Of a DNA stretch of 64,000 bases, positions 9,689 through 36,458 are shown piece after piece. Where the stretch lies: the NCBI GenBank assembly GCA_965232465.1, contig OZ246977.1, positions 580,649 through 644,648 of the forward strand. The letters run 5' to 3'. The notes beneath the pieces are model-generated. The model saw nothing but the letters and a program-made list of their open reading frames with translations. It was not told where the DNA came from and did not search any database. A program made the translations under genes and the position numbers. Within the stretch, counting starts at the first letter, position 1. The number at the start of each line of letters is the position of its first letter. This stretch comes from Alphaproteobacteria bacterium. GTDB lineage: Bacteria > Pseudomonadota > Alphaproteobacteria > JAQWUY01.

Positions 9689-12600
9689 TTAAAACTGTCT
9701 TTGAATATTGCCGATTTCACGAAATTTGAATTGTACAAACAGGGATTTTTCTGGGGCACTGCGGGATTTGGAATAATCCTGCTTATATTCAATATCGGCA
9801 CCAAAACAGCCACAACTGGTGTTGTATTCAAAGCCTACGGATTGACGAACAAGTCCTTTTTTGCTTTCTTCAAATTCATAACTGTGTTCTGTGCGTATGT
9901 GCCAACGGTTATTGATTTTGTATGCTATCCCAAATTTTGTTTGTGCCAGGGGGTCTAGTTGTGAATTTTTCCGAGGTTCAATTTTTGTGTATCCCATGTC
10001 AATTTTATATGTATCACGCGTATATGCAACATTTGATTCCAATTTTCGGGTGCGAAAACTATGGCTGTCCAGTTCAAAGTTAGCATATATATTGACATTG
10101 TCCCAATTGGCATATAGATTGCCAATAAAATCCGATGCAATGTTATTATCCCCTTGTGTGATATTTTGCCCCAAGAATGCTTGGACATAGGTATCGTCTT
10201 GCCATATTTTTAAACGGCTTCCATAGGATATGCGACTACCTGTGTCTATTTTATCCACGCCTGCGTATCGGTTGTTGGCAAATAGTGTGGATTCGTCTAA
10301 TTCAAAATCCACACTGTCATTATTGGGTAACCCATCGGGATTTTCATAGAATTTTGATATAAAAATGCCCGCTATAGGTTCCAGGATAATGTGACGGTTA
10401 AGTGCAGGCCTTGAGTTTTGTGGGCGAATCGACAAGGGATATGATACGACCATACTTGCCATCGGGGTAAAACGATTTAAACGGCCATTGGTATGGTCTT
10501 TGCCATTGACAGTAAATTCTTTAAAATATCCGAATTTGTATGCATCCGCCCGTCCGATAATGTCGGTTTTTACCAACATGCCTTGCTGGGTAACAAAAGG
10601 ACGGGAATATGTAACCGTTGTGGATATTGTATGGGATTTCAAAGTGCCTTTTTTTTGTATCGAACGGGCAATCGAAGTAATGTTTACATTGCTGGTGCCT
10701 GCTGGGCTTTGAAAAGTTCGTTCGTATTGTATACTGGGGAATAAAGTGGTTACAGGACGATCGTTTTGGCGGATGTCACGATAGGATGCGGAATCTATTT
10801 CCAGTGTGGAACTTGGGGTAATTTTCGTGGCTGTTGCCCCCGTTCGCAAGGTGTCTTTTGTGGCTTTGTTCAACAGCGTGTAGGTCTTTAAATAGGATTT
10901 TTCGGTGACATTTTGATGGTTTAATCTGTATTGCCACCCTGTGTGCGTATTTTTTACATAAGATGCAAACCAATGTCCCTGTATTTCGCCCCCAGTATCG
11001 TCCTCTCTGATAAAAGACACATTATGTCGCAGGATGGTTTTGCGGGTATCATTGTTGTTACGGTATAAAAATTCCATCCCTTGTCCCTTGCGGGTAGTGT
11101 AAATGGGGCTGATAAGAATGTCGCTGTTATCTGTCAGGGATTTATAATAATGTCCCTGTACAAACAGCCCCAATACATTAGTGGTACCTGTATCCGGTAC
11201 CAACCAACCATCTTTTTTGACCGCATCTGGTGTGGGTTGTTCCAAATTTGACCCGAAATACGGTAGCGGAATACCCAACAGTTCCATACGGGAATTGGTA
11301 AAAGCAATATTTTGGTTTTCTACATCTAGTGTAACTTTGTCTGCCCGCATTAGCCATGTGGGGGAATTTTCGCCTTCTGGTACCCTACAGGATGTATAAG
11401 TAGCTTTTTCCGCTTGTATATTGCCATTGGCATAAGTTTGGAAAGTTTGGGCCGATATTTGTACATTATTTTGTAAATTGCGTTGCAGGTTGGTACCGCT
11501 TATGGTATCGAAGGCGATATTTGACCGCAAAGTATCCATGGTGCTCACATCACCAGTAGGGTCCGTGTACGATACATTCCCTTCTGCTTGTACCAAGTCC
11601 AAGGATTCGTTATATATGATTTGATTTGATTGTATTTCCCCATGTATCCCCTTGGCGACGGTATTGTTACGGATTGTTAATTGGCGAATATTATCGTCAT
11701 ATGTTGCCATATCCCCCGTTAATATCATATTATCTTGCAGGGTTGTGGTATATTGTACCCCCCCGCTGGCGTTCATAATATTTTCAGATTGTGTATATAC
11801 AATGGTATCAGAAGTCAATATGCCATTTCCATTTTTGGCACTTGCCCCTTTGCTGAGGGTTATAAACTGTTTTTTCCTGTCATATATGGCATGATTCCCT
11901 GTTAAAGTGATATTGTCAGATTTTGATACAAATATGGTATTTTCTGTTGTTTCTATTACCTCCTGTTTTTGATCGTATTGTAAGCGGTCCGATTTTAATA
12001 TGGCTTGATCGTTTTCCGCTTGGGCGTTTTTATCCAAAACCAAGGACTGTTTTTTCCTGTCATATATGGCATGATTCCCTGTTAAAGTGATATTGTCAGA
12101 TTTTGATACAAATATGGTATTTTCTGTTGTTATTACCTCCTGTTTTTGATCGTATTGTAATCTGTCCGATTTTAATATGGCTTGGTCGTTTTCTGCTTGG
12201 GCGTTTTTATCCAAAACTAAGGTTTGTTGCATGCCATTATATAAGGCATTTTTGCCTTGTGCCACCAAGGGTGAAATTTTTGATGTAAACACAGTATGCC
12301 CTTGTGTTTGGATAATATCCATATTCTGATTATATTGCATGTTGTCTGATTGTATAACCGCTGCATTATTTTCTGCACGGGCATTTTTGTTTAACATTAA
12401 AACATTATTTTTTGGGTTATATATTAAATTTTGTGATTGTAATATTATGGGGCGATTTGTGTTTGTGGTGGTAAAATATGCATTACCTGTGGCGGTTGTG
12501 ATTTGGGTGGTTTGGTCGTATTTAATGGAATCAGATCGCAATATCCCTTGGGTATTTTTGGCAATTGCGTTGGTATCCAGTGTTATTGTTTTTGATTGCC

Positions 12601-12772
12601 TGTTGTAAACCGCACTGTCGCCTTGTAATTGTATGTCATCGGCATATGCGGCGGCGGTGGCGATGTATATACTGAGTATAAGTTTTGTTGTGTGTGCCAC
12701 GATTATCCCACTTTTTCCGATGATAAAGTTAAAAAACCGCCTAATAACAGTATAATAATGGTGGGTAACCAC
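9689..12772 (-). CDS. lptD: LPS-assembly outer-membrane protein LptD (OstA/Imp) with an expanded repetitive N-terminal domain
   Basis: It is 1027 aa. The N-terminal half is built from repeated OstA-like units and the C-terminal half is a large beta-barrel with the LptD_C signature. It lies immediately upstream of rsmA as in other proteobacteria. The true start may be an alternative codon downstream, because the annotated ATG overlaps lptG by 70 nt. Confidence 0.8.
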   Translation of the reverse strand: MVTHHYYTVIRRFFNFIIGKSGIIVAHTTKLILSIYIATAAAYADDIQLQGDSAVYNRQSKTITLDTNAIAKNTQGILRSDSIKYDQTTQITTATGNAYFTTTNTNRPIILQSQNLIYNPKNNVLMLNKNARAENNAAVIQSDNMQYNQNMDIIQTQGHTVFTSKISPLVAQGKNALYNGMQQTLVLDKNAQAENDQAILKSDRLQYDQKQEVITTENTIFVSKSDNITLTGNHAIYDRKKQSLVLDKNAQAENDQAILKSDRLQYDQKQEVIETTENTIFVSKSDNITLTGNHAIYDRKKQFITLSKGASAKNGNGILTSDTIVYTQSENIMNASGGVQYTTTLQDNMILTGDMATYDDNIRQLTIRNNTVAKGIHGEIQSNQIIYNESLDLVQAEGNVSYTDPTGDVSTMDTLRSNIAFDTISGTNLQRNLQNNVQISAQTFQTYANGNIQAEKATYTSCRVPEGENSPTWLMRADKVTLDVENQNIAFTNSRMELLGIPLPYFGSNLEQPTPDAVKKDGWLVPDTGTTNVLGLFVQGHYYKSLTDNSDILISPIYTTRKGQGMEFLYRNNNDTRKTILRHNVSFIREDDTGGEIQGHWFASYVKNTHTGWQYRLNHQNVTEKSYLKTYTLLNKATKDTLRTGATATKITPSSTLEIDSASYRDIRQNDRPVTTLFPSIQYERTFQSPAGTSNVNITSIARSIQKKGTLKSHTISTTVTYSRPFVTQQGMLVKTDIIGRADAYKFGYFKEFTVNGKDHTNGRLNRFTPMASMVVSYPLSIRPQNSRPALNRHIILEPIAGIFISKFYENPDGLPNNDSVDFELDESTLFANNRYAGVDKIDTGSRISYGSRLKIWQDDTYVQAFLGQNITQGDNNIASDFIGNLYANWDNVNIYANFELDSHSFRTRKLESNVAYTRDTYKIDMGYTKIEPRKNSQLDPLAQTKFGIAYKINNRWHIRTEHSYEFEESKKGLVRQSVGFEYNTSCGCFGADIEYKQDYSKSRSAPEKSLFVQFKFREIGNIQRQF
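11866..12228. repeat. Near-perfect tandem duplication (183 bp + 180 bp) inside lptD
   Basis: The unit 'ctgttttttcctgtcatatatggcatgattccctgttaaagtgatattgtcagattttgatacaaatatggtattttctgttgtt…' occurs twice head-to-tail. It encodes the repeated 60-aa segment LVLDKNAQAENDQAILKSDRLQYDQKQEVI…NHAIYDRKKQ. Confidence 0.9.
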
Positions 12773-22189: not shown

Positions 22190-22501
22190 ATGAGTAAAAT
22201 ACGGAAGAATTACCCTGCTAAATTCAAAAAAGAGGTTGTTTTGGCAGTATTGCGTGATGACACGCCGATATCGGAATTATCGTCTCGTTTTGGAGTGCAT
22301 GCTACGGTTATTCAAAGGTGGAAGCGAGAGGCTGTTTGCTCTATTGAGGCAGGATTTTCAGGCAATCTTGACAAACAAAAGCATGATAGCGAAGCCCATG
22401 TTAAAGAGCTTCATGCCAAGATAGGTCAATTGACGATTGAACGGGATTTTTTGTCGGACATTTCGGATCGTTTAGGATTACAGGTTAAAAAAAAATGGTA
22501 A
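22190..22501 (+). CDS. IS3-family transposase OrfA (HTH)
   Basis: It has an HTH_Tnp_1-like N-terminus 'NYPAKFKKEVVLAVLRDDTPISELSSRFGVHATVIQRWKRE' and a leucine-zipper tail. Confidence 0.85.
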   Translation: MSKIRKNYPAKFKKEVVLAVLRDDTPISELSSRFGVHATVIQRWKREAVCSIEAGFSGNLDKQKHDSEAHVKELHAKIGQLTIERDFLSDISDRLGLQVKKKW

Positions 22502-23349
22502 ATTCTAATTCCCCCGATTTAAGTATTGTGCGTCAATGCGAGTTGCTTGGAATGAACCGTTCAAGTTATTACTATCAATGTAAAGAAGAGAGTGATTTTA
22601 ATGTGGAGTTGATGGAACAGATAGCCCAGCAACATTTACAAACGCCTTTTTATGGTGCGAGGCAAATGATGCGTCATTTAATCCGCCAAGGCTATAAGGT
22701 CGGCAGAAAACGCATCCGCAGGCTGATGAAGGTACTGAGGCTAAAAGCAATTTACCAAGAGCCAAAAACATCTACTATAAACCCGCAACATAAGGTGTAT
22801 CCGTATTTGTTGAGAAACTTGGATATTAACCGTCCTAATCAGGTTTGGTGTACAGATATTACTTATATCCCGATCAAACGAGGGTTTTTATATTTGGTTG
22901 CTGTTATGGATTGGTATAGTAGGAAGGTACTCTCATGGCGTTTATCTAATACGCTGGATAGTAGGTTTTGTGTTGAAGCGTTAAATGATGCTTTGGCAAA
23001 ATACCCCACCCCAGAGATATTTAATACAGACCAAGGCAGTCAGTTTACTTCCCTTGATTTTACGGATACCTTAAAAGATAATGGTATTCGTATATCTATG
23101 GATGGTAAAGGGTGTTGGAAGGATAATGTCATAATTGAAAGATTTTGGAAATCATTGAAGTATGAATGTGTTTATTTGCAAGCATTTACCAGCGGTGTAA
23201 TGGCTAAGGAAAGCATAAGAAAATGGCTTAAATTTTACAACCAAGATAGACCCCATTCACATTTCGGTTTGACAACACCCGCAGAAACATATACAATGCA
23301 TTCTCATGCAAAAGAAGTTCCGCCTACGGCTACACTTACTTTTACATGA
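22495..23349 (+). CDS. IS3-family transposase OrfB (DDE integrase core)
   Basis: It has an rve-type DDE core (…VWCTDITYIP…NTDQGSQFTS…). It is probably expressed as an OrfAB fusion by a -1 frameshift at TTAAAAAAAAATGG (22486..22496). Confidence 0.85.
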   Translation: MVNSNSPDLSIVRQCELLGMNRSSYYYQCKEESDFNVELMEQIAQQHLQTPFYGARQMMRHLIRQGYKVGRKRIRRLMKVLRLKAIYQEPKTSTINPQHKVYPYLLRNLDINRPNQVWCTDITYIPIKRGFLYLVAVMDWYSRKVLSWRLSNTLDSRFCVEALNDALAKYPTPEIFNTDQGSQFTSLDFTDTLKDNGIRISMDGKGCWKDNVIIERFWKSLKYECVYLQAFTSGVMAKESIRKWLKFYNQDRPHSHFGLTTPAETYTMHSHAKEVPPTATLTFT

Positions 23350-23422
23350 GAATATACATATTTAACCACATAAGTGAAGCTTAAAATAGGCTTAGTACTG
23401 TCCTAACAAAGGGGACCACCTC

Positions 23423-24116
23423 TCACAGCTAGGTAAACCGCCTTGTTGATAATAACATGGGTATCACGGGTTTTAATGTGTATACAGTCCAGATAAACAA
23501 TGGGATAAATACTATTAAGCGGTCTGTTTTGCCATGCGTTAATGTCATCTATGACTTTGTCCGTAACAGTTGAAATCAATTCATGGGACACTTCTGTTCC
23601 ATAAATCTCATAAATATATTGCTGTATTTCCCGCATAGTCATGCCACGGGCGTACATGGATATAACTTTATCATCAAAGCCATCAAATCGCCGAGCATTT
23701 TTTGGAATAAACTGGGGTTCATAATCGTTATCTCTGTCCCGTGGTATGCGTAAATTTAAACTATCATTGTCACTGATAACGGTTTTGGAGTAATGTCCAT
23801 TACGGCGATTTGTAGTACTTTTGGGGGATTTATCATGCTTTTGATAGCCAAGGTGATGTTCCATTTCCCCGTCAAGGATACCGTTGGCAAGGCTTTGTTT
23901 CAAAGATTGAAAAAAGCCATCAGCACCAAACAATTCCTGCCCTTCGGCTTGTTGCAATAGTTGCTTGATCAAATCAGGGTTAATCTCTGGTCTAGTATTT
24001 AACTTCTTGGTTCTTTTCGTCATAAGTAAGTCTCCTTAATTCTGTATGTGTTATATTGGGAATATTCCCAATATAACACATGGGTTAATAAAGTCTACTT
24101 ACACAAACTTTCTGAC
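23423..24116 (-). pseudogene. 5' fragment of an IS256-family element with a truncated transposase, interrupted by the IS3 'a' insertion
   Basis: ORF 23403..24023 is essentially identical to the first roughly 200 aa of the intact IS256 transposase at 34640..35881. It diverges exactly at the IS3 terminus. The IS256 left inverted repeat 'gtaagtagactttattaac…' lies at 24070..24116. Confidence 0.8.
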
Positions 24117-24186
24117 ATACCCGTATTATTTATATTTTTTAGTATTTATACTTTCTTTTTAATTTTTTCACATATCTGCAATGTAA

Positions 24187-24388
24187 AAATAGAAGAAATA
24201 GAGTGTATATTTATTGTAGCAGTAGCAGTTGTAGCGATATTTATTTTTATTTTATACTTAAATCTTTTGAATACAATGTGTATGAGAACTAAAAAAATGT
24301 CAGATTGTAATGTAAATTATAAATTTGAGACACGGAAGGCAAAAAATAACATTCATAAAAAATGTTAAGATTTTACAGAATAATACAG
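24187..24388 (+). repeat. 200-bp direct repeat, copy A, flanking the IS cluster
   Basis: It is about 90% identical to 26027..26230. It contains the small ORF '…MSDCNVNYKFETRKAK…'. Confidence 0.8.
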
Positions 24389-24756
24389 AGGTGGTTCCCC
24401 TTGTTAGGACAGTACTAAGCCTACTTTAAGCTTCACTTATGTGGTTAAATATGTATATTCTCATGTATAAGTGTAGCCGTAGGCGGAACTTCTTTTGCAT
24501 GAGAATGCATTGTATATGTTTCTGCGGGTGTTGTCAAACCGAAATGTGAATGGGGTCTATCTTGGTTGTAAAATTTAAGCCATTTTCTTATGCTTGCCTT
24601 AGCCATTACACCGCTGGTAAATGCTTGCAAATAAACACATTCATACTTCAATGATTTCCAAAATCTTTCAATTATGACATTATCCTTCCAACACCCTTTA
24701 CCATCCATAGATATACGAATACCATTATCTTTTAAGGTATTCCGTGACCAGCCCCA
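24389..24756 (-). pseudogene. 3' fragment of a second IS3 'a'-type copy (orfB C-terminus), truncated by insertion of another IS
   Basis: ORF 24445..24708 is more than 95% identical to the C-terminal 85 aa of OrfB of IS3 'a'. The terminal repeat 'aggtggttccccttgttaggacagtactaagcc' lies at 24389..24421. Confidence 0.8.
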
Positions 24757-24799
24757 CTGATTTGGTCCATTTTTAGGTTAGCACTTTTTTGCTCTATTG

Positions 24800-25675
24800 T
24801 CAATGATATTTGTCATGTAGCGTAGCGGAATGACGGATGTCATTGACAATGGGCTGCGTTTTTGGCACTGGTGGATTGTACCCCAACGCACTATGCGGAC
24901 GGATATGATTGTATTCATACCGCCAGTTTTCTATGACAGCTTGTGCCTCAGTTAAAGTATCAAATATCTCCCTGTTCAAGCACTCATCCCGAAGTTTACC
25001 ATTAAAACTTTCATTATAACCATTCTGCCATGGACTGCCCTTATCAATATATGCTGTATCCACCTGCATACGCTTCAACCAACCTTGTAGCATATGGGCT
25101 ATAAATTCGGATCCATTGTCAGAACGGATATGCTTAGGCATACCTTTTGTGATAAACAACCTGCCCATAATATCCAATACATCCGTACTGTTCAGTTTAT
25201 GCCGAACATCAATGGTTAAGCATTCTCGGCTATGTTCATCTATAACCGTTAATATTTTAATGCTTTTACCACTTCTGAGTTTGTCATGCACAAAATCATA
25301 ACTCCATATATGATTTTGATACTCAGGACGAAGTTTAATACAGCTCCCATCACCAGCATTTGAACTGCGGGGTTTGGGTATTTTCTGTGGCACTTGTAGT
25401 CCCTCCTTCTTCCAAAGCCGTTCAATCCGTTTATGGTTTACACACCAACCATAATTTTTTAATAAGGCACATATCCGCCGATAACCATATCTAGGGTATT
25501 TTTGTGCTAGACGGTGCATATCTGATATTAAACGGCTTTCCTCATCAACATCTCGTTTCACATAACGAACCGTAGAGCGATGTGTCTTGAATAAACTACA
25601 TAAACGCCGTTCTGATACATTGTAAAAAAACTTGGCTTTGCCAATAAAGCTTTTTACCCCGCCAGCACCTACCAC
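24800..25675 (-). CDS. IS3-family transposase OrfB (DDE integrase core)
   Basis: It has an rve core with '…[11 protein letters not shown]…' and 'SDNGSEF' motifs. It overlaps orfA by 7 nt. Confidence 0.8.
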
Positions 25676-26629: not shown

Positions 26630-28216
26630 TTAATGTTTAAAGTGTCGCATATTTGTAAACACCATGGTGATACCAGCTTTGTTGGCCGTGTCTATGACTT
26701 CTTGGTCGTTGCGGCTGCCCCCTGGTTGGATAATGGCGGTTGCCCCCGATTGCACACATAATTCCAATGCATCTTTAAATGGAAAGAACGCATCGGATGC
26801 GACCACAGAGCCCATACAGCCTAAGAACTTATTACCTTTTTCTGCCCCCAGTCTTGCCGAATCTATACGGGACATTTGCCCCGCCCCAATGCCGACAGTT
26901 TGCCCATTTTTTGCATATACAATCGCATTTGATTTTACATGCTTACACGCCTTCCACGCAAATATCAAATCCGCCCACTCCCTATCCGTCGGGACACGGT
27001 CGGTTACCACTTTACAATCGCCCTGTTTTACCATGCCACAATCCCGTGATTGCACCAACAGACCACCAGCAAGGTGTTTTATCACATTCCCCCCATCGTG
27101 GGTATTACAGATGGCACCTGTTGCTAACAAGCGCAAATTTTCCCATGAGGATAAAACCTCAATCGCTTCGTCGGTGAACGATGGGGCAATAATGACTTCC
27201 AAGAAAATTTGCCCCAAATTATTGGTAAAATCCATATCAACAGTCTTGTTAAACGCCACAATTCCCCCAAAGGCCGACTCAGGGTCACAGGCTAATGCCT
27301 TTTGCCACGCATCGGCAACCGATTCCCCAATGGCAATGCCACAGGGATTGGCATGCTTTATAATTGCACATGCAGGGGTCTTTTTGTATTCACACACCAT
27401 TTCAAACGCCGCATCCGCATCGTTTAAGTTATTATATGACAATTTCTTGCCTTGTAATTGTTTTGATTTTGTTACTCCATGGCGGTTTTCATGGGTTTCA
27501 TACAAAGCCGATTTTTGATGGGGATTTTCCCCATATCGTAATTGTTGTTTTAATGTTCCCACCGCAAAAATAGTTTGAGGCGTGTCCTCCCCCATACTTT
27601 TACACATCCAATTGGCGATATGGCTGTCGTACATTGCCGTGTGGCTGAACGCAGATAACGCCAATTTACGGCGTGTTTTTAAAGTGGTCGCCCCATCGTT
27701 GTTGTGCATTTCGTTTAATATGGTTTGATATTGGCTATTATCGGTAATAATGGTTGTATGTTTATGGTTTTTTGCACACGAACGTACCATAGAGGGTCCG
27801 CCAATATCAATACTTTCAATACAGTCTTCGAAACTGGCACCAGATTCCACCATATGCACAAATGGATATAAATTAACCACCACCATATCGATCGGTGATA
27901 TGTAATGTGCCTCCATTGATAGCATGTGTTTTTGATTGTCCCTGTCCGCTAATATCCCCCCGTGCACCAAAGGGTGTAAAGTTTTAACCCGTCCATCCAT
28001 AATTTCCGGAAATCCCGTATAGGATGACACATCGGTAATCGGAATATTAGCTTCTTTTAACGCCCGTGCTGTCCCCCCAGTCGACAAGATATGCACATCG
28101 TGTTTTATCAACCCTTCGACAAAATCAATAAGTCCCATTTTATCGGATACAGATATAAGTGCCCGTACAATTTTAACATTTGTGCCTTCAACTTTAACAT
28201 CTTTGTTTTCAACCAT
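26630..28216 (-). CDS. purH: Bifunctional AICAR transformylase / IMP cyclohydrolase
   Basis: It has an MGS-like N-terminal domain (…[10 protein letters not shown]…) and an AICARFT domain. It is 528 aa. Confidence 0.9.
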
Positions 28217-33034: not shown

Positions 33035-33337
33035 ATGTTTATAAAATGTAGGCTCTACTATTTTGGCTTATTTATTTTTTCCATAAACTATGTAATACCA
33101 CATTTAAATCGTTTTGTCTATTATTAAACCGCCACCGCCACTTTTTTAAGTGAAAAATGAACATATCATCGGTTTGTTTAAGGATTTTCCTATTTTCCTA
33201 ATTGACAAACTATAGAGAAGATGGTACAGTGCACTGGTTGTGTGTATTTTGCTTGCGATTACATGCAATTTTACATATGTTAACTCAGAAGTATTAAGAG
33301 AGTTGTATGGATCCCAATGTTGTGCTATTATGGGTAA

Positions 33338-33748
33338 ATGCGTTTGTCATTTATGTGTTGTGGGTTACCTTTTCAGGGGTATTTAAAAAGCCACCCGAAT
33401 CTAAAACCGGTGTGCGAGACTGGTTTAAATCAAGCCTGTTTGTGTCGATTTTTTAGCAAAGAAAAACGGGATATTATTTTTCATAATGTGGTAACTCTGA
33501 TAGCGTTTATTTTACCGATGTTTGTATCCCGTTATGTGGTTACCTTTGTCCCGAATATCGTGGAAGTGTTACACTCTGCATTTAATCTGCAATATGCTTT
33601 TATCATTAAAGGTGTTATATTTTATATATTGGCAATTTTACCATTTATTGGATTTCACATACTGTTTGTCATATCCCCTATTTTTAAATGGCTGAGTATT
33701 ATAATTTTGTTGGTAATTCCCTTGATCAAAAGGTTTAGCCGCAGGTAA
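33338..33748 (+). CDS. Hypothetical small membrane protein; the start is uncertain
   Basis: It has a hydrophobic C-terminal two-thirds and lies 36 bp upstream of the tandem-repeat protein gene. Coding status is unverified. Confidence 0.25.
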   Translation: MRLSFMCCGLPFQGYLKSHPNLKPVCETGLNQACLCRFFSKEKRDIIFHNVVTLIAFILPMFVSRYVVTFVPNIVEVLHSAFNLQYAFIIKGVIFYILAILPFIGFHILFVISPIFKWLSIIILLVIPLIKRFSRR

Positions 33749-33784: not shown

Positions 33785-34579
33785 ATGTTTAAGAGAATGA
33801 AAAAAATGGTGTCAGGTGTGGGCAAAACTGTTGGTAAAACCGCATCAAGCGTAGCCGATACAGCCGGCACTGTGGCATCAGGTATAGGTAAAACCGCCAG
33901 TAAGACCGTATCAAGTGTAGCCGATACAGCCGGCACTGTGGCATCAGGTATAGGTAAAACCGCCAGTAAGACCGCATCAAGTGTAGCCGATACAGCCGGC
34001 ACTGTGGCATCCAGCGTAGGTAAAACCGCCAGTAAGACAGCATCAAGCGTAGCCGATACAGCCGGTACTGTGGCATCAGGTATAGGTAAAACCGCCAGTA
34101 AGACCGCATCAAGCGTAGCCGATACAGCCGGTACTGTGGCATCAGGTATAGGTAAAACCGCCAATAAGACCGCATCAAGTGTAGCCGATACAGCCGGCAC
34201 TGTGGCATCAGGTATAGGTAAAACCGCCAGTAAGACCGCATCAAGTGTAGCCGATACAGCCGGCACTGTGGCATCCAGCGTAGGTAAAACCGCCAGTAAG
34301 ACCGCATCAAGCGTAGCCGATACAGCCGGTACTGTGGCATCCAGCGTAGGCAAAACCGCCAGTAAAACCGCATCAAGTGTGGCAGATACAGCAGGCAATG
34401 TAGCAACCAGCGTAGGCAAAACCGCTAGTAAGATCGCATCAAGTGTAACCGATACAGCTGGTACTGTGGCATCAGGTATAGGCAAGACCGCAAAGGATGA
34501 TGGCAATAAAAATACAGAAAATCAATCATCGCCCACACAATGGGTATATCAGAAAGTTTGTGTAAGTAGACTTTATTAA
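33785..34579 (+). CDS. Tandem-repeat protein with about ten 22-aa repeats (consensus ASSVADTAGTVASGIGKTASKT); the 3' end runs into the IS256 terminal repeat
   Basis: The plus frame is open across the whole array. It has a Met start after a purine-rich Shine-Dalgarno and a Lys-rich N-terminus. The last 9 codons (QKVCVSRLY*) lie inside the IS256 left inverted repeat. Confidence 0.55.
   Translation: MFKRMKKMVSGVGKTVGKTASSVADTAGTVASGIGKTASKTVSSVADTAGTVASGIGKTASKTASSVADTAGTVASSVGKTASKTASSVADTAGTVASGIGKTASKTASSVADTAGTVASGIGKTANKTASSVADTAGTVASGIGKTASKTASSVADTAGTVASSVGKTASKTASSVADTAGTVASSVGKTASKTASSVADTAGNVATSVGKTASKIASSVTDTAGTVASGIGKTAKDDGNKNTENQSSPTQWVYQKVCVSRLY
33838..34492. repeat. 66-bp tandem repeat array, about 9.9 copies, more than 90% identical
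   Basis: The unit is 'accgcatcaagcgtagccgatacagccggcactgtggcatcaggtataggtaaaaccgccagtaag'. It explains the long spurious ORFs on the opposite strand. Confidence 0.95.
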
Positions 34580-35908
34580 CCATGTGTTATATTGGGAATA
34601 TTCCCAATATAACACATACAAAATTAAGGAGACTTACTTATGACTAAAAGAACCAAGAAGTTAAATACTAGACCAGAGATTAACCCTGATTTGATCAAGC
34701 AACTATTGCAACAAGCCGAAGGGCAGGAATTGTTTGGTGCTGATGGCTTTTTTCAATCTTTGAAACAAAGCCTTGCCAACGGTATCCTTGACGGGGAAAT
34801 GGAACATCACCTTGGCTATCAAAAGCATGATAAATCCCCCAAAAGTACTACAAATCGCCGTAATGGACATTACTCCAAAACCATTATCAGTGACAATGAT
34901 AGTTTAAATTTACGCATACCACGGGACAGAGATAACAATTATGAACCCCAGTTTATTCCAAAAAATGCTCGGCGATTTGATGGCTTTGATGATAAAGTTA
35001 TATCCATGTACGCCCGTGGCATGACTATGCGGGAAATTCAGCAGTATATTTATGAGATTTATGGAACAGAAGTGTCCCATGAATTGATTTCAACTGTTAC
35101 GGACAAAGTCATAGACGACATCAACGCATGGCAAAACAGACCGCTTAATAGTATTTATCCCATTGTTTATCTGGACTGTATACACATTAAAACCCGTGAC
35201 ACCCATGTTATTATCAACAAGGCGGTTTACCTAGCTGTGGGCATCAATATGGAAGGCAAAAAAGAAGTACTTGGCATGTGGATTGCCAAAACCGAAGGGG
35301 CTAAGTTTTGGTTACAAGTGATAACAGAACTTAAAAACCGTGGCGTTACTGATATATTCATAGCCTGTATCGATGGACTAACTGGATTTGAAGACGCCAT
35401 CTGTTCCGTATTTCCACAAACCACCGTGCAGCTGTGTATTGTGCATATGGTACGCAACAGCCTAAAATTCGTCCCTTGGAAAGATAAAAAGCAAGTGGCT
35501 GATGATTTAAAAGCCATTTATAACGCTTCATCTGAGGACATGGCATTGCAACAGTTAAAGGCATTTCGGCAAAAATGGGACAGTACATATCCAACCATCG
35601 CCAGCAGTTGGCAGAAAAAGTGGGCGAGTATAGCACCGTGTCTAGCCTATCCCGAGCATATTAAAAAGGTCATTTATACCACAAACACCATAGAATCCAT
35701 CAATCGGCAGATTAGAAAAATCATTAAAAACAAAGGGGTATTCCCAAATGATACGGCTGTCAAAAAATCTTTATTTTTAGCCTTGCAAAATGCAGAAAAA
35801 AGATGGACAATGCCCATTAGGAATTGGAAACAAGCTTTAAACCAATTCGCTATTATGTTTGACGATAGAGTTAAACTTTAAAATACTATTTACACAAACT
35901 TTCTGATA
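34546..35908 (+). mobile_element. Intact IS256-family insertion sequence
   Basis: The inverted repeats are 'cagaaagtttgtgtaagtagac…' on the left and '…tatttacacaaactttctga' on the right. There is a single 413-aa transposase at 34640..35881. Confidence 0.85.
34640..35881 (+). CDS. IS256-family transposase (mutator type)
   Basis: It is 413 aa with the conserved DDE region of IS256/MULE transposases (…YLDCIHIKTRD…, …ACIDGLTGF…, …ESINRQIRK…). Confidence 0.9.
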   Translation: MTKRTKKLNTRPEINPDLIKQLLQQAEGQELFGADGFFQSLKQSLANGILDGEMEHHLGYQKHDKSPKSTTNRRNGHYSKTIISDNDSLNLRIPRDRDNNYEPQFIPKNARRFDGFDDKVISMYARGMTMREIQQYIYEIYGTEVSHELISTVTDKVIDDINAWQNRPLNSIYPIVYLDCIHIKTRDTHVIINKAVYLAVGINMEGKKEVLGMWIAKTEGAKFWLQVITELKNRGVTDIFIACIDGLTGFEDAICSVFPQTTVQLCIVHMVRNSLKFVPWKDKKQVADDLKAIYNASSEDMALQQLKAFRQKWDSTYPTIASSWQKKWASIAPCLAYPEHIKKVIYTTNTIESINRQIRKIIKNKGVFPNDTAVKKSLFLALQNAEKRWTMPIRNWKQALNQFAIMFDDRVKL

Positions 35909-36458
35909 GCCTCCACACAATCTGTATTACAAGATACACACAAAATTGTCTATGTTTTAATGTATTGGTCTAACGCCATAATTCTATATGCTATTTTTAT
36001 CGAAATGCATGTGCGAAGCACAGATGGTCCCGAATGGTGGCAATCTTTTGTAAAAATATGGCATTTAATAACATATATAATCCCACTTGTCATAACTGCT
36101 ACCATGGGCAAATACATATGGAACGCCTTAAATACATGCCGTTCACTTACAAGGCGATGCCTATATTTTGAAATAGCTTTAATTACAATATTTACAATTT
36201 TTTATCTGTTGTACACATATACACCATTTGACACCATTACCATAAATATTCTTACACGCATTGGTAATTTATAAGGCTCTAGACTATTTTGACTTATTAT
36301 AATATCTATTGATAGTATTACGATTTATTCCAAGTAAACGACCCGTTTTCGTAGCGTCAATGTTAGCCCCAAATATTTTACTATGTAAACGCCATTCAAA
36401 GCTTAAAAAAAATGATATTCATCTTAAACATGGTATTATATTTAAGGAGGAAAAATAT

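Follow-up and report, generated by a model that had tools for sequence, protein, structure and literature searches.

A repeat-built, predicted membrane-tethered helix protein whose gene is split by an IS256-family insertion

An ATG-initiated ORF at 33785-34579 (+ strand, 264 aa) encodes ten 22-residue repeats in the window, the 64,000-nucleotide stretch of DNA that was analysed as a whole. This raises the questions of what protein the repeats belong to and what such a protein could do. A first-pass annotation had taken the ORF as a gene in its own right, read the 22-mer as two amphipathic 11-mers and likened it to helices that bind lipid or membrane surfaces. We followed these points through the repeat array, the sequence surrounding it, the helical periodicity of the product and searches for relatives.

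The repeat array and the split gene

Tandem Repeats Finder (TRF) reported a single array at 33834-34491, with a period of 66, 10.0 copies, 91% matches, no indels and a score of 1015, bearing out the earlier description of a 66-bp array in frame in a Met-initiated ORF. No other long-period coding array of this kind was found in the 64-kb window, nor any paralogue. The ten units from 33842 translate as ASSVADTAGTVASGIGKTASKT or near variants, with GI changed to SV in four of them, and match exactly the repeat sequence given in the first-pass annotation. Its statement that repeat identity exceeds 90% holds on the TRF average and in the array core, with pairwise identities of 86-98% among units 1-8, but fails at the 3' edge, where units 9 and 10 share 68-86% identity with the others.

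The bases that differ between units lie mostly at third codon positions (32/50). Codon differences between units comprise 24 synonymous versus 17 non-synonymous changes in the ORF frame, and the same comparison gave 1/36 and 5/32 in the other + frames. GC3 is 0.377 versus 0.39 in the rest of the window, and codon usage is alike. Horizontal acquisition of the repeat gene was considered and set aside, there being no codon-usage signal for it. An ENA metagenome contig, long-read-style and with 2.15x coverage, encodes an identical 264-aa product, and this second assembly has 0 mismatches to the window across 10.6 kb. Short-read collapse therefore does not account for the number of repeat copies.

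The ORF as called is not a complete gene, however. Its last 12 codons and stop are insertion-sequence DNA, and the remainder makes up the first 68% of a 369-codon gene that is split by an IS256-family insertion. The parts are as follows.

33338..33748, + strand: upstream orphan ORF of 136 aa with ~3 hydrophobic helices, ending 37 nt ahead of the repeat gene
33785..34541, + strand: native 5' part of the split gene, codons 1-252 and the first base of codon 253 (from the ORF and junction analysis)
33812..33841, + strand: degenerate N-terminal half unit SGVGKTVGKT, residues 10-19 (from translation)
33842..34501, + strand: ten 66-bp units, in frame, each a 22-residue repeat of two 11-mers (from translation and TRF)
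34502..34541, + strand: start of the polar linker between repeats and membrane anchor, GNKNTENQSSPTQ (from translation)
34533..34541, no strand: target-site duplication CCACACAAT, 9 bp, left copy (direct repeat)
34542..35912, + strand: IS256-family insertion sequence, 1371 bp (from the second copy, inverted repeats, target duplication and transposase)
34542..34579, + strand: IS-derived ORF tail, residues 253-264 WVYQKVCVSRLY and stop, foreign to the original protein (from the IS boundary)
34582..34617, no strand: perfect palindrome of 36 nt inside the IS, 5' of the transposase start, shared with the second IS copy (24046-24081)
35913..35921, no strand: target-site duplication CCACACAAT, right copy (direct repeat)
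35922..36274, + strand: 3' part of the split gene, with the remaining linker, three predicted transmembrane helices and the stop (from the restored frame)

The boundaries of the element are fixed by a second copy in the window with 98% identity, whose alignment begins exactly at 34542, and by the flanking 9-bp duplication. Its terminal inverted repeats (34547-34574 and 35881-35908) are imperfect, and the transposase ORF (34640-35881, 413 aa) matches the Mutator/IS256 family PF00872 in Pfam with E=1e-119. The element thus combines the Mutator-type DDE transposase, terminal inverted repeats and 8-9 bp target duplication that define the IS256 family, and elements related to it carry that annotation. 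It is typical in transposase, length, inverted repeats, duplication and multicopy state, and nothing about it is unusual. Its closest plasmid-borne relatives, from Rickettsia endosymbionts and Candidatus Megaera, have only 65-67% DNA identity. The 413-aa transposase occurs at full length at least four times in the same 2.63-Mb contig, and the genome is abundant in IS elements.

Deletion of 34542-35921 in silico gave one open frame of 369 codons. Past the junction only the restored frame is open, for ~116-117 codons, and the chance of 116 open codons from composition is 2.4e-4. The gene begins at the ATG at 33785, with AGAAAGAG five nt upstream. A separate 104-aa ORF is recorded at 35960-36274, and its ATG falls within the first hydrophobic helix. 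For annotation, the lesson is that a single gene, split by the IS256-family element, has been recorded as two, with calls of 264 aa and 104 aa for its halves, and that 12 residues of the recorded 264-aa 'protein' are transposon sequence. Only one strain was found, carrying the insertion, and the 24-nt empty-site junction TCGCCCACACAATCTGTATTACAA (...TCATCGCCCACACAAT joined to CTGTATTACAAG...) had no match among JGI metagenome contigs; for these reasons the intact allele has never been observed. Since the insertion swaps the anchor for 12 IS-encoded residues, the present ORF is a pseudogene of recent origin or, in the best case, encodes a truncated protein without its tether, and the split gene has probably lost its function in the sequenced strain.

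Helical periodicity and the predicted C-terminal membrane domain

The 22-mer does behave as two 11-mers sharing the same hydrophobic register. On three hydrophobicity scales, 59-70% of the spectral power of the repeat domain lies at a period of 3.67, a level reached by 0/20000 shuffles, and the power at period 2 is nearly nil. The hydrophobic moment is coherent across all 217 residues, with a value of 0.42 (Eisenberg scale) at 98.2 degrees (98.18) per residue, whereas at 95 or 100 degrees it does not exceed 0.04. All ten units preserve the amphipathic register. The 3-11 periodicity that the first-pass annotation had proposed to check is therefore present, and the in-phase period of 11/3 = 3.67 places the domain in the 3-11 amphipathic-helix class, which is a physical class and not one of homology.

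The repeat domain has no aromatic residue, Leu or Met and a net charge of +1 per unit, and the Heliquest-type values are 0.34 for the moment, 0.37 for the hydrophobic fraction, 0 for the aromatic fraction and 0.13 for the charged fraction. The hydrophobic face is very weak, and bilayer binding may be absent. Because Ser, Thr and Gly make up ~49% of the domain, it could stay disordered, and the prediction for the free domain is disorder or weak helicity. AlphaFold2, run on the single sequence, gave one helix over residues 2-242 with a pLDDT of ~70-80, though no alignment went into the model, and predictions of that type lean towards helix when given repeats. The pTM was 0.26, with a dip in confidence at residues 126-128 in the middle of the array. 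This modelled helix is only suggestive of a switch from disorder to helix on a lipid surface.

In the restored C-terminus, transmembrane helices are predicted at residues ~261-279, 296-318 and 331-352, with Kyte-Doolittle hydropathies of 1.98, 1.54 and 1.78 for three 19-residue windows, the second segment being borderline. All three segments are helical in the AlphaFold model, at low confidence. Hydrophobic helices of this length (~19-23 residues) characterize an integral inner-membrane protein. The restored protein has no signal peptide, and the charge is +4 in the loop that joins helices 2 and 3, against about -1 in the one joining helices 1 and 2. The lack of a signal peptide and the loop charges place the repeat domain in the cytoplasm, a topology that we infer from the positive-inside rule only. 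Given the three-helix anchor, the original protein would have been a tethered cytoplasmic helix rather than a soluble lipid-binding protein.

Relatives and likeness to known helical proteins

Neither the Pfam nor the NCBIfam threshold was reached by the repeat domain, and PHROGs likewise gave nothing at its curated threshold. The first-pass annotation knew of no bacterial family with this exact repeat. Among known repeat families, phasin, ice nucleation, LEA_4, YtxH, perilipin and synuclein were all below threshold. No phasin family (PF09361 Phasin_2 and relatives) was found for the repeat protein at Pfam E<=1, and DUF3618 (PF12277) gave no match. Ice-nucleation repeats have a periodicity of 8/16/48 and a Tyr octapeptide; here the period is 22, the array has no Tyr and there is no Pfam match. 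The best Pfam scores came from apolipoprotein profiles, at 29.4 bits (E=7.9e-7) for Apolipoprotein A1/A4/E (PF01442), whose gathering threshold is 90 bits, and 20.4 bits for Apolipophorin-III (PF07464), whose gathering threshold is 36.3 bits. The exchangeable apolipoproteins of these two families also have amphipathic 22-mers of 2 x 11 residues but, unlike the repeat domain, are Pro-punctuated, rich in Leu/Glu/Arg and ~35% charged.

Six weak matches of the repeat protein (E 2e-10 to 3e-4) have in common only VADTA-type 11-mers, and their architectures are unrelated (peptidase-like, macro domain, DUF3618), so that homology is inseparable from convergence. In four weak relatives (P0002, P0003, P0004 and P0006) VADTAG-type 11-mers adjoin transmembrane segments. 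Metagenome relatives amounted to three loci, two YtxH-like of another lineage and one high-GC DUF3618-type, and the 22-mer was in none of them. An exhaustive phmmer search of 1.84 billion representative proteins gave no relatives of the transmembrane domain, two added matches being spurious multi-repeat proteins, and a word-indexed search with the C-terminal membrane domain returned the self match only. As both domains are orphans, conservation provides no argument for function.

The proposed likeness to synucleins and perilipins holds as a measurable resemblance in chemistry and residue order and not as family membership, there being no Pfam Synuclein or Perilipin match. The top PDB sequence matches are to the 11-mer region of alpha-synuclein and are marginal (E about 0.006-0.02, 19 bits). 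The local score against alpha-synuclein is 105, compared with 55.5 +/- 12.2 for shuffles of the unit, and was reached by 2/2000 of these, so the similarity depends on residue order, beyond composition. The two proteins have a common register of small apolar residues, Lys and Thr, with ASKTASSVADTAG here and AEKTKQGVAEAAG in synuclein (KTKEGV repeats). Alpha-synuclein has seven imperfect repeats, a NAC region and an acidic tail, whereas the membrane anchor belongs to the present protein. Significant homology to the Synuclein family was not found in Pfam, and synuclein is known only from vertebrates.

Perilipin 4 offers an analogy, and not a homology, that extends to the construction of the repeat. 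Both proteins are exact tandem arrays built of 11-mers without indels and are predicted to form a 3-11 helix (PMC5889406), both are nearly without aromatic or large hydrophobic residues and enriched in Thr, Gly, Val and Ala, and both have a net charge of +1 per repeat. Published values for moment/hydrophobic/aromatic/charged fractions are 0.257/0.35/0.002/0.15 for Plin4, 0.35/0.37/0.01/0.23 for Plin3 and 0.30/0.47/0.02/0.24 for alpha-synuclein (Table 1, PMC5889406), and those of the repeat domain fall beside them. Moment and charged fraction are low in both perilipin 4 and the repeat domain, at 0.257 and 0.15 versus 0.34 and 0.13. Plin4 is poor at binding bilayers (PMC5889406). The unit of perilipin 4 is 33 residues (3 x 11) in a helix of ~970 residues, as against 22 residues and ~230 residues here, and its PAT domain/four-helix bundle is absent from the bacterial protein, which has a three-transmembrane-helix tether instead.

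Among bacterial proteins, the closest in design are membrane-anchored helical stress proteins, namely YtxH (PF12732), the C-tail-anchored DUF883 proteins (ElaB/YqjD/YgaM) and DUF3618 proteins, in which a cytoplasmic helix, often with 11-mer periodicity, is joined to one or more transmembrane segments, as in the restored protein. The DUF3618 proteins P0002, P0004 and P0006 contain ASSVADTASNA-type 11-mers that are 8/11 identical to the first half unit here, although the DUF3618 domain itself lies outside the 11-mer region in common. A protein encoded in the metagenomic locus L083 has an N-terminus similar to that of the present protein and matches YtxH with 48 bits. The repeat protein itself matched neither YtxH-like nor DUF883 families, YtxH being unlisted at E<=1 in Pfam. 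The families also differ in having one tail anchor, where this protein has three C-terminal helices and near-identical 22-mers. One preprint describes ElaB/YqjD as acting on ribosomes (bioRxiv 10.1101/2024.08.16.608256).

A candidate function, its competitors and the genomic setting

We put at about even the chances that the 264-aa ORF encodes the N-terminal portion of a 369-aa, lineage-specific, membrane-tethered helix protein that would bind a lipid surface and that has been inactivated or truncated by the IS256-family element. In the original protein, residues 1 to ~240 would comprise ~21 uninterrupted eleven-residue repeats (ten 22-mers and the half unit), followed by a polar linker of ~20 residues and three C-terminal transmembrane helices, and the insertion would have struck the linker of this inner-membrane protein gene. 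At an interface the repeat domain would fold into a single ~34-nm 3-11 amphipathic helix, with a narrow apolar stripe of small residues only (Ala, Val, Ile, Gly, Thr) and a polar face of Ser/Thr/Lys/Asp with net +1 per 22 residues. It would most probably act by spreading flat against the inner membrane, over its anionic cytoplasmic leaflet, or against the surface of another lipid or polymer inclusion, the anchor holding it there and many weak contacts contributing, as in alpha-synuclein, perilipin 4 and bacterial YtxH-/LEA-like proteins. A narrower proposal, which we regard as rather unlikely, is an independently evolved prokaryotic counterpart of perilipin 4/alpha-synuclein, tethered to the inner membrane, whose task would be to cover or detect a lipid surface, with packing defects, curvature and a lipid/PHB inclusion that buds from the membrane as examples.

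The composition of the domain (Ser/Thr/Gly/Ala/Lys-rich, no large hydrophobics) and an 11-mer periodicity like that of group 3 LEA proteins would also suit a hydrophilic protectant, acting as a disordered molecular shield or as a desiccation, cold or osmotic stress protein with non-specific protection of proteins and membranes. The related-looking repeat protein of the L083 locus matches YtxH and, weakly, LEA_4. Typical LEA3 proteins, however, have far more charged residues than the 13% of the repeat domain, no match to LEA_4 (PF02987) or YtxH was obtained for the repeat protein at E<=1, and an anchor of three helices argues for a fixed site of action. LEA-like proteins are documented in bacteria according to one report (PMC8096337), and we assign a low probability to the protectant. 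The apolar stripe occupies positions 1, 4, 5, 8 and 11 of the 11-mer, which are hendecad core positions, and is kept straight by the exact unit length and lack of indels. A hendecad coiled coil in which Ala, Val and Ile at a, d, e and h form the core, arranged as an antiparallel hairpin or homo-oligomer and serving as a membrane-anchored fibre or spacer, could account for this, and the AlphaFold dip at residues 126-128 could mark the hairpin turn; yet each 11-mer would bring just one beta-branched residue to a core that is otherwise nearly all Ala/Gly, a poor basis for a stable coiled coil, the pTM is just 0.26, and such a scaffold seems to us improbable.

It is likewise doubtful that the gene never had a selected function and is an orphan ORF, either young or in decay, in which repeats grew by slippage or unequal recombination and which is now being lost, the IS marking one step. 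Orphan domains among billions of proteins, a location in AT-rich lineage-specific DNA and disruption in the sole strain known, in an IS-rich genome, would fit this account. It sits poorly with the synonymous excess between units, the register retained in all ten, the 117 codons still open 3' of the IS with three well-formed hydrophobic helices, and codon usage that matches the host genome. A secreted effector of a host-associated bacterium, with the helix targeting host vesicles or lipid droplets and the C-terminus entering a host membrane, is very unlikely. The repeat chemistry is like that of eukaryotic proteins, the Rickettsia endosymbiont and Candidatus Megaera relatives of the IS (65-67%) hint at a host-associated alphaproteobacterium, and there is a marginal PDB match to the Chlamydia effector CT622 (E=0.006), but that alignment is low-complexity, no secretion signal was recognised, the adjacent genes include no secretion system, and the sugar catabolism and complete housekeeping operons mean that the organism is not obviously obligate intracellular. 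We give hardly any credence to a phage tail tape-measure fragment or other prophage remnant. The PHROG phrog_167 (tape measure) matched residues 3-129 with E=7.5e-12, and tblastn aligned tape-measure proteins of Lactobacillus phages at ~27% identity over ~240 residues (E 1e-9 to 1e-5) in Gly/Lys-rich helical repeats, in which KMFSGLGKTGIGKSVGK resembles the N-terminus here. The phage repeats are nevertheless Trp/Phe/Lys-rich, unlike the array, there are no nearby phage genes, a scan of viral contigs gave no relative, and the restored gene has a start and a stop of its own and gives a protein of 369 aa, where tape-measure proteins run from several hundred to thousands of residues within a tail module. 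The similarity was judged to be compositional, being confined to Gly/Lys-rich helical repeats and fitting a common helical-repeat composition.

If binding of the tethered helix to a lipid surface is confirmed, the protein would be a compact bacterial model of low-hydrophobicity, repeat-built helices comparable to perilipin 4 and alpha-synuclein, in which ten near-identical 22-mers and a built-in anchor would represent the same design with an independent origin. The immediate importance is limited because this is an orphan, disrupted gene in one strain.

The 136-aa ORF that precedes the repeat gene is a possible operon partner; its comparison with the C-terminal domain gave E=0.13, which is not significant. 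A promoter-like site at 33202-33230 is a consensus match only. No rRNA or tRNA was found within the window. A scan of genome contigs with PhoH gave Hyphomicrobiales-type matches only, at 50-53% identity, and the source is probably an AT-rich alphaproteobacterium. The repeat gene sits in AT-rich, lineage-specific DNA between housekeeping blocks, its neighbours including phoH-ybeY-corC, purH and a nucleoside kinase, and sugar catabolism and complete housekeeping operons are encoded in the window.

The tandem array and its reading frame

A single tandem array with a 66-bp period occupies 33834-34491 (10.0 copies, 91% matches, zero indels) and lies within the following ORF.

33785-34579, plus strand: repeat ORF, ATG start, 264 aa, enclosing the 66-bp array

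The first-pass annotation had proposed a Met-initiated ORF carrying the array in frame as 22-mers, and this is confirmed by the translation of the ten units, cut in frame from 33842: ASSVADTAGTVASGIGKTASKT. Unit variants are scarce, with GI replaced by SV in four units and single A/V, S/N, T/N, S/T, A/T and T/I changes. Residues 10-19 (SGVGKTVGKT) form a degenerate half unit, so nearly the whole of residues 1-240 is repeat. Pairwise identity is 86-98% among units 1-8, and 68-86% between units 9-10 and the rest. The best-match pairs (1/4, 2/6 and 3/7, each 98%) suggest from their sequences that a multi-unit block was recently duplicated.

Base differences between units fall mostly at third codon positions (32 of 50), and the codon differences are 24 synonymous versus 17 non-synonymous in the ORF frame, compared with 1/36 and 5/32 in the other two plus-strand frames. 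AGAAAGAG sits 5 nt upstream of the ATG, and codon usage is like that of other genes in the window (GC3 0.377 versus 0.39). Thus, the plus-strand frame of the ORF is coding, and given the GC3 match, the array's 53% GC is due to amino-acid composition.

An identical 264-aa product is encoded on an ENA metagenome contig (L081; long-read-style name, 2.15x coverage), which differs from the window over 10.6 kb by 0 mismatches and nine single indels. Two assemblies of this strain thus agree on the number of repeat units, which does not stem from a collapse of short reads. The nine single-base indels look like long-read errors rather than biology; purH is called as four fragments in L081 (2845-4498) and is intact (528 aa) at window 26630-28216.

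Insertion of an IS256-family element

Features of the insertion at the 3′ end of the repeat ORF, and the second IS copy
34542-35912: IS element, 1371 bp
34533-34541 and 35913-35921: 9-bp direct repeat, CCACACAAT
34547-34574 and 35881-35908: imperfect terminal inverted repeats of the IS
34640-35881: transposase ORF directly downstream of the repeat ORF, Mutator/IS256-type (PF00872, E=1e-119)
24122-23424, minus strand: second, truncated IS copy, 98% identity, alignment beginning exactly at 34542

The limits of the element follow from the start of the second-copy alignment, the terminal inverted repeats and the 9-bp repeat. IS sequence supplies the last 12 codons of the 264-aa ORF, WVYQKVCVSRLY, and its stop. 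With the IS and one copy of the 9-bp duplication taken out, 369 codons read as one open frame. Beyond the restored junction only the frame of the repeat gene is open, and the probability of 116 open codons arising by chance at the local base composition is 2.4e-4. As no stop occurs from the repeats to 36272 in the pre-insertion sequence, the ancestral ORF must have been continuous across that stretch. The 104-aa ORF at 35960-36274 is the 3′ part of the split gene, its own ATG lying inside the first hydrophobic helix. It is thus very likely that the repeat gene was split by IS insertion: the annotated ORF is real, as are its repeats, but it is not a complete gene: a transposon has truncated it, and the orphan membrane-protein gene to which it belongs is known from one strain only.

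At least four full-length transposase copies with at least 90% identity are present in the same 2.63-Mb contig, so the IS family is active and probably inserted here only recently, in agreement with the undamaged 3′ half. The nearest plasmid-borne relatives of the IS occur in Rickettsia endosymbionts and Candidatus Megaera (65-67% identity). Inside the element, after the left inverted repeat and ahead of the start codon of the transposase, is a 36-nt perfect palindrome (34582-34617), conserved in the second copy (24046-24081). It may be a hairpin, either protecting the transposase gene against read-through transcription or regulating transposase translation. The truncated copy (transposase shortened to 206 aa) lies in an IS nest at 22495-25675, between two IS3-family (rve) transposase ORFs at 22495-23349 (plus) and 24800-25675 (minus).

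Regions of the restored protein
Residues 1 to about 240: repeat domain
Residues about 240-260: polar linker, KDDGNKNTENQSSPTQSVLQDTHK
Residues about 261-279, 296-318 and 331-352: hydrophobic segments, Kyte-Doolittle means 1.98, 1.54 and 1.78

The restored protein has no signal peptide. Four basic residues sit in the helix 2-3 loop, against a net charge of −1 for the helix 1-2 loop, and the positive-inside rule would thus put the repeat domain in the cytoplasm. AlphaFold2 run without an alignment gave one helix for residues 2-242 (pLDDT about 70-80) and three to four helices at the C-terminus (pLDDT about 50), which is suggestive only.

The predicted amphipathic repeat helix

The earlier reading of the 22-mer as two amphipathic 11-mers proved numerically sound. 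The 22-mer concentrates 59-70% of its spectral power at a period of 3.67 on three hydrophobicity scales, a level reached by 0 of 20000 shuffles. Power at period 2 is at most 1%, which argues against beta structure, and a beta-solenoid or ice-nucleation-like fold was excluded by this periodicity. The Eisenberg hydrophobic moment of the whole 217-residue domain reaches 0.42 for a turn of 98.18 degrees per residue but falls to 0.02-0.04 at 95 or 100, so the apolar stripe is exactly in phase for an 11/3 helix alone. The stripe comprises positions 1, 4, 5, 8 and 11 of each 11-mer (A, V/I, A/G, A, V/T), and the opposite face is Ser/Thr plus Asp or Lys. The domain (A 48, S 41, T 39, G 26, V 25, K 19, D 10, I 7, N 2) lacks Leu, Met, Phe, Trp, Tyr, Pro, Glu and Arg, and each unit has a net charge of +1. 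A helical, amphipathic repeat domain is accordingly likely.

Helix properties, with residue definitions and comparison values from Table 1 of Copic et al. 2018 (PMC5889406); the moment of this protein was computed as in Heliquest (Fauchere-Pliska scale, 3-11 helix)
Protein: moment; hydrophobic fraction; aromatic fraction; charged fraction
This protein: 0.34; 0.37; 0; 0.13
Plin4: 0.257; 0.35; 0.002; 0.15
Plin3: 0.35; 0.37; 0.01; 0.23
Alpha-synuclein: 0.30; 0.47; 0.02; 0.24

The chemistry is unusually close to that of perilipin 4 and alpha-synuclein, although the sequence is unrelated. Plin4 repeats are also free of indels between them, enriched in Thr, Gly and Val, and net +1 per repeat (PMC5889406). 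Setting aside CT622, which gave one low-complexity alignment, the best match among 177,635 PDB sequences was the alpha-synuclein 11-mer region (E 0.006-0.02); this is not evidence of homology. Five units scored 105 against synuclein residues 1-100 (a query consistent with the fragments in the PDB alignments), whereas unit-shuffled arrays scored 55.5 ± 12.2 and 2 of 2000 reached 105, so the similarity depends on residue order.

Relatives, rival readings and surroundings

The repeat protein is, by sequence comparison, an orphan. Against 5.8 billion clusters the repeat domain found six weak matches and no others; these share only VADTA(G/S)-type 11-mers within unrelated architectures. Of these, P0002, P0003, P0004 and P0006 have transmembrane segments as well, and a DUF3618 domain is present outside the repeats in three of this set of four. 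Such arrays are N-terminal in the otherwise unrelated P0001, P0003 and P0005 (one papain-like peptidase-related, one with a macro domain, one membrane-anchored), and the 11-mer may be a widespread, uncurated bacterial module. The three-helix C-terminal domain matched only itself in an indexed search, and exhaustive phmmer against 1.84 billion representatives gave no true relative. In Pfam only sub-threshold scores were obtained (Apolipoprotein, 29 bits versus a cut-off of 90; ApoLp-III, 20 versus 36), and NCBIfam gave nothing, in keeping with the original statement that no described bacterial family was known with this exact repeat.

A helical repeat protein of another lineage that scores to YtxH was found at two JGI metagenome loci, L083 (4908-5924; Ga0256832) and L084 (1283-2179; Ga0256831), with a similar N-terminus (MLGFLKKLFGSGKNVVNKA against MFKRMKKMVSGVGKTVGKTA). 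On these sister contigs it is 338 and 298 aa, exactly one 40-residue unit apart and otherwise almost identical, so arrays of such analogous proteins vary in copy number. The next protein along in L083 is a membrane protein with weak resemblance to PAP2.

In the best-supported reading, the restored protein would be a cytoplasmic helix about 34 nm long, tethered to the membrane, that folds on, and stretches out over, the anionic inner leaflet or some other surface of lipid or polymer, held by many weak contacts; the IS would have untethered or inactivated it. Surface binding as its function, with lipid binding predicted, is a tentative proposal. Membrane-anchored 11-mer amphipathic repeat proteins are already known in bacteria and eukaryotes, and what is new here is a sequence-unrelated protein of that type.

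We also considered a LEA-like shield protein, a hendecad coiled-coil scaffold, a secreted effector and an orphan without selected function that is being lost now. At E≤1, Pfam gave no match to LEA_4, YtxH, Phasin, Perilipin, Synuclein or ice-nucleation families, so the strong phasin or ice-nucleation-like match that could have overturned the first-pass annotation is absent. Descent from a phage tape-measure gene would fit the PHROG and tblastn similarity to tape-measure proteins, but is effectively excluded by genomic context: no phage context surrounds the gene. Viral contigs yielded no relatives, and the similarity appears to reflect Gly/Lys-rich helical repeats, the phage ones also containing Trp and Phe.

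One side of the locus is a minus-strand housekeeping block, phoH-ybeY-corC-rpe-(heparinase-like)-purH, whose PhoH is 50-53% identical to Hyphomicrobiales PhoH; the other has a nucleoside-kinase-like gene and sugar-catabolism genes. The source is probably an AT-rich alphaproteobacterium whose chromosome measures 2.63 Mb. A further ORF lies immediately upstream.

33338-33748, plus strand: orphan membrane ORF, 136 aa, about three hydrophobic helices, ending 37 nt before the repeat gene

This ORF lacks family matches, forms a singleton cluster, and shows weak, non-significant similarity (E=0.13) to the membrane domain encoded by the 3′ part of the split gene. It may be co-transcribed with the repeat gene; the sole promoter-like site is upstream of it, in a scan without enrichment over shuffles. 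Elsewhere, lptD (9689-12772, minus), encoding the essential outer-membrane LPS-assembly protein, contains a 177-bp tandem duplication (11880-12249; 2.1 copies, 90% matches), in frame, internal and of about 59 residues. A 1963-aa exoprotein (53808-59699, plus) combines a two-partner-secretion (TPS) domain with FG-GAP repeats and YDG domains, and adjoins a minus-strand ORF of 546 aa (59801-61441).
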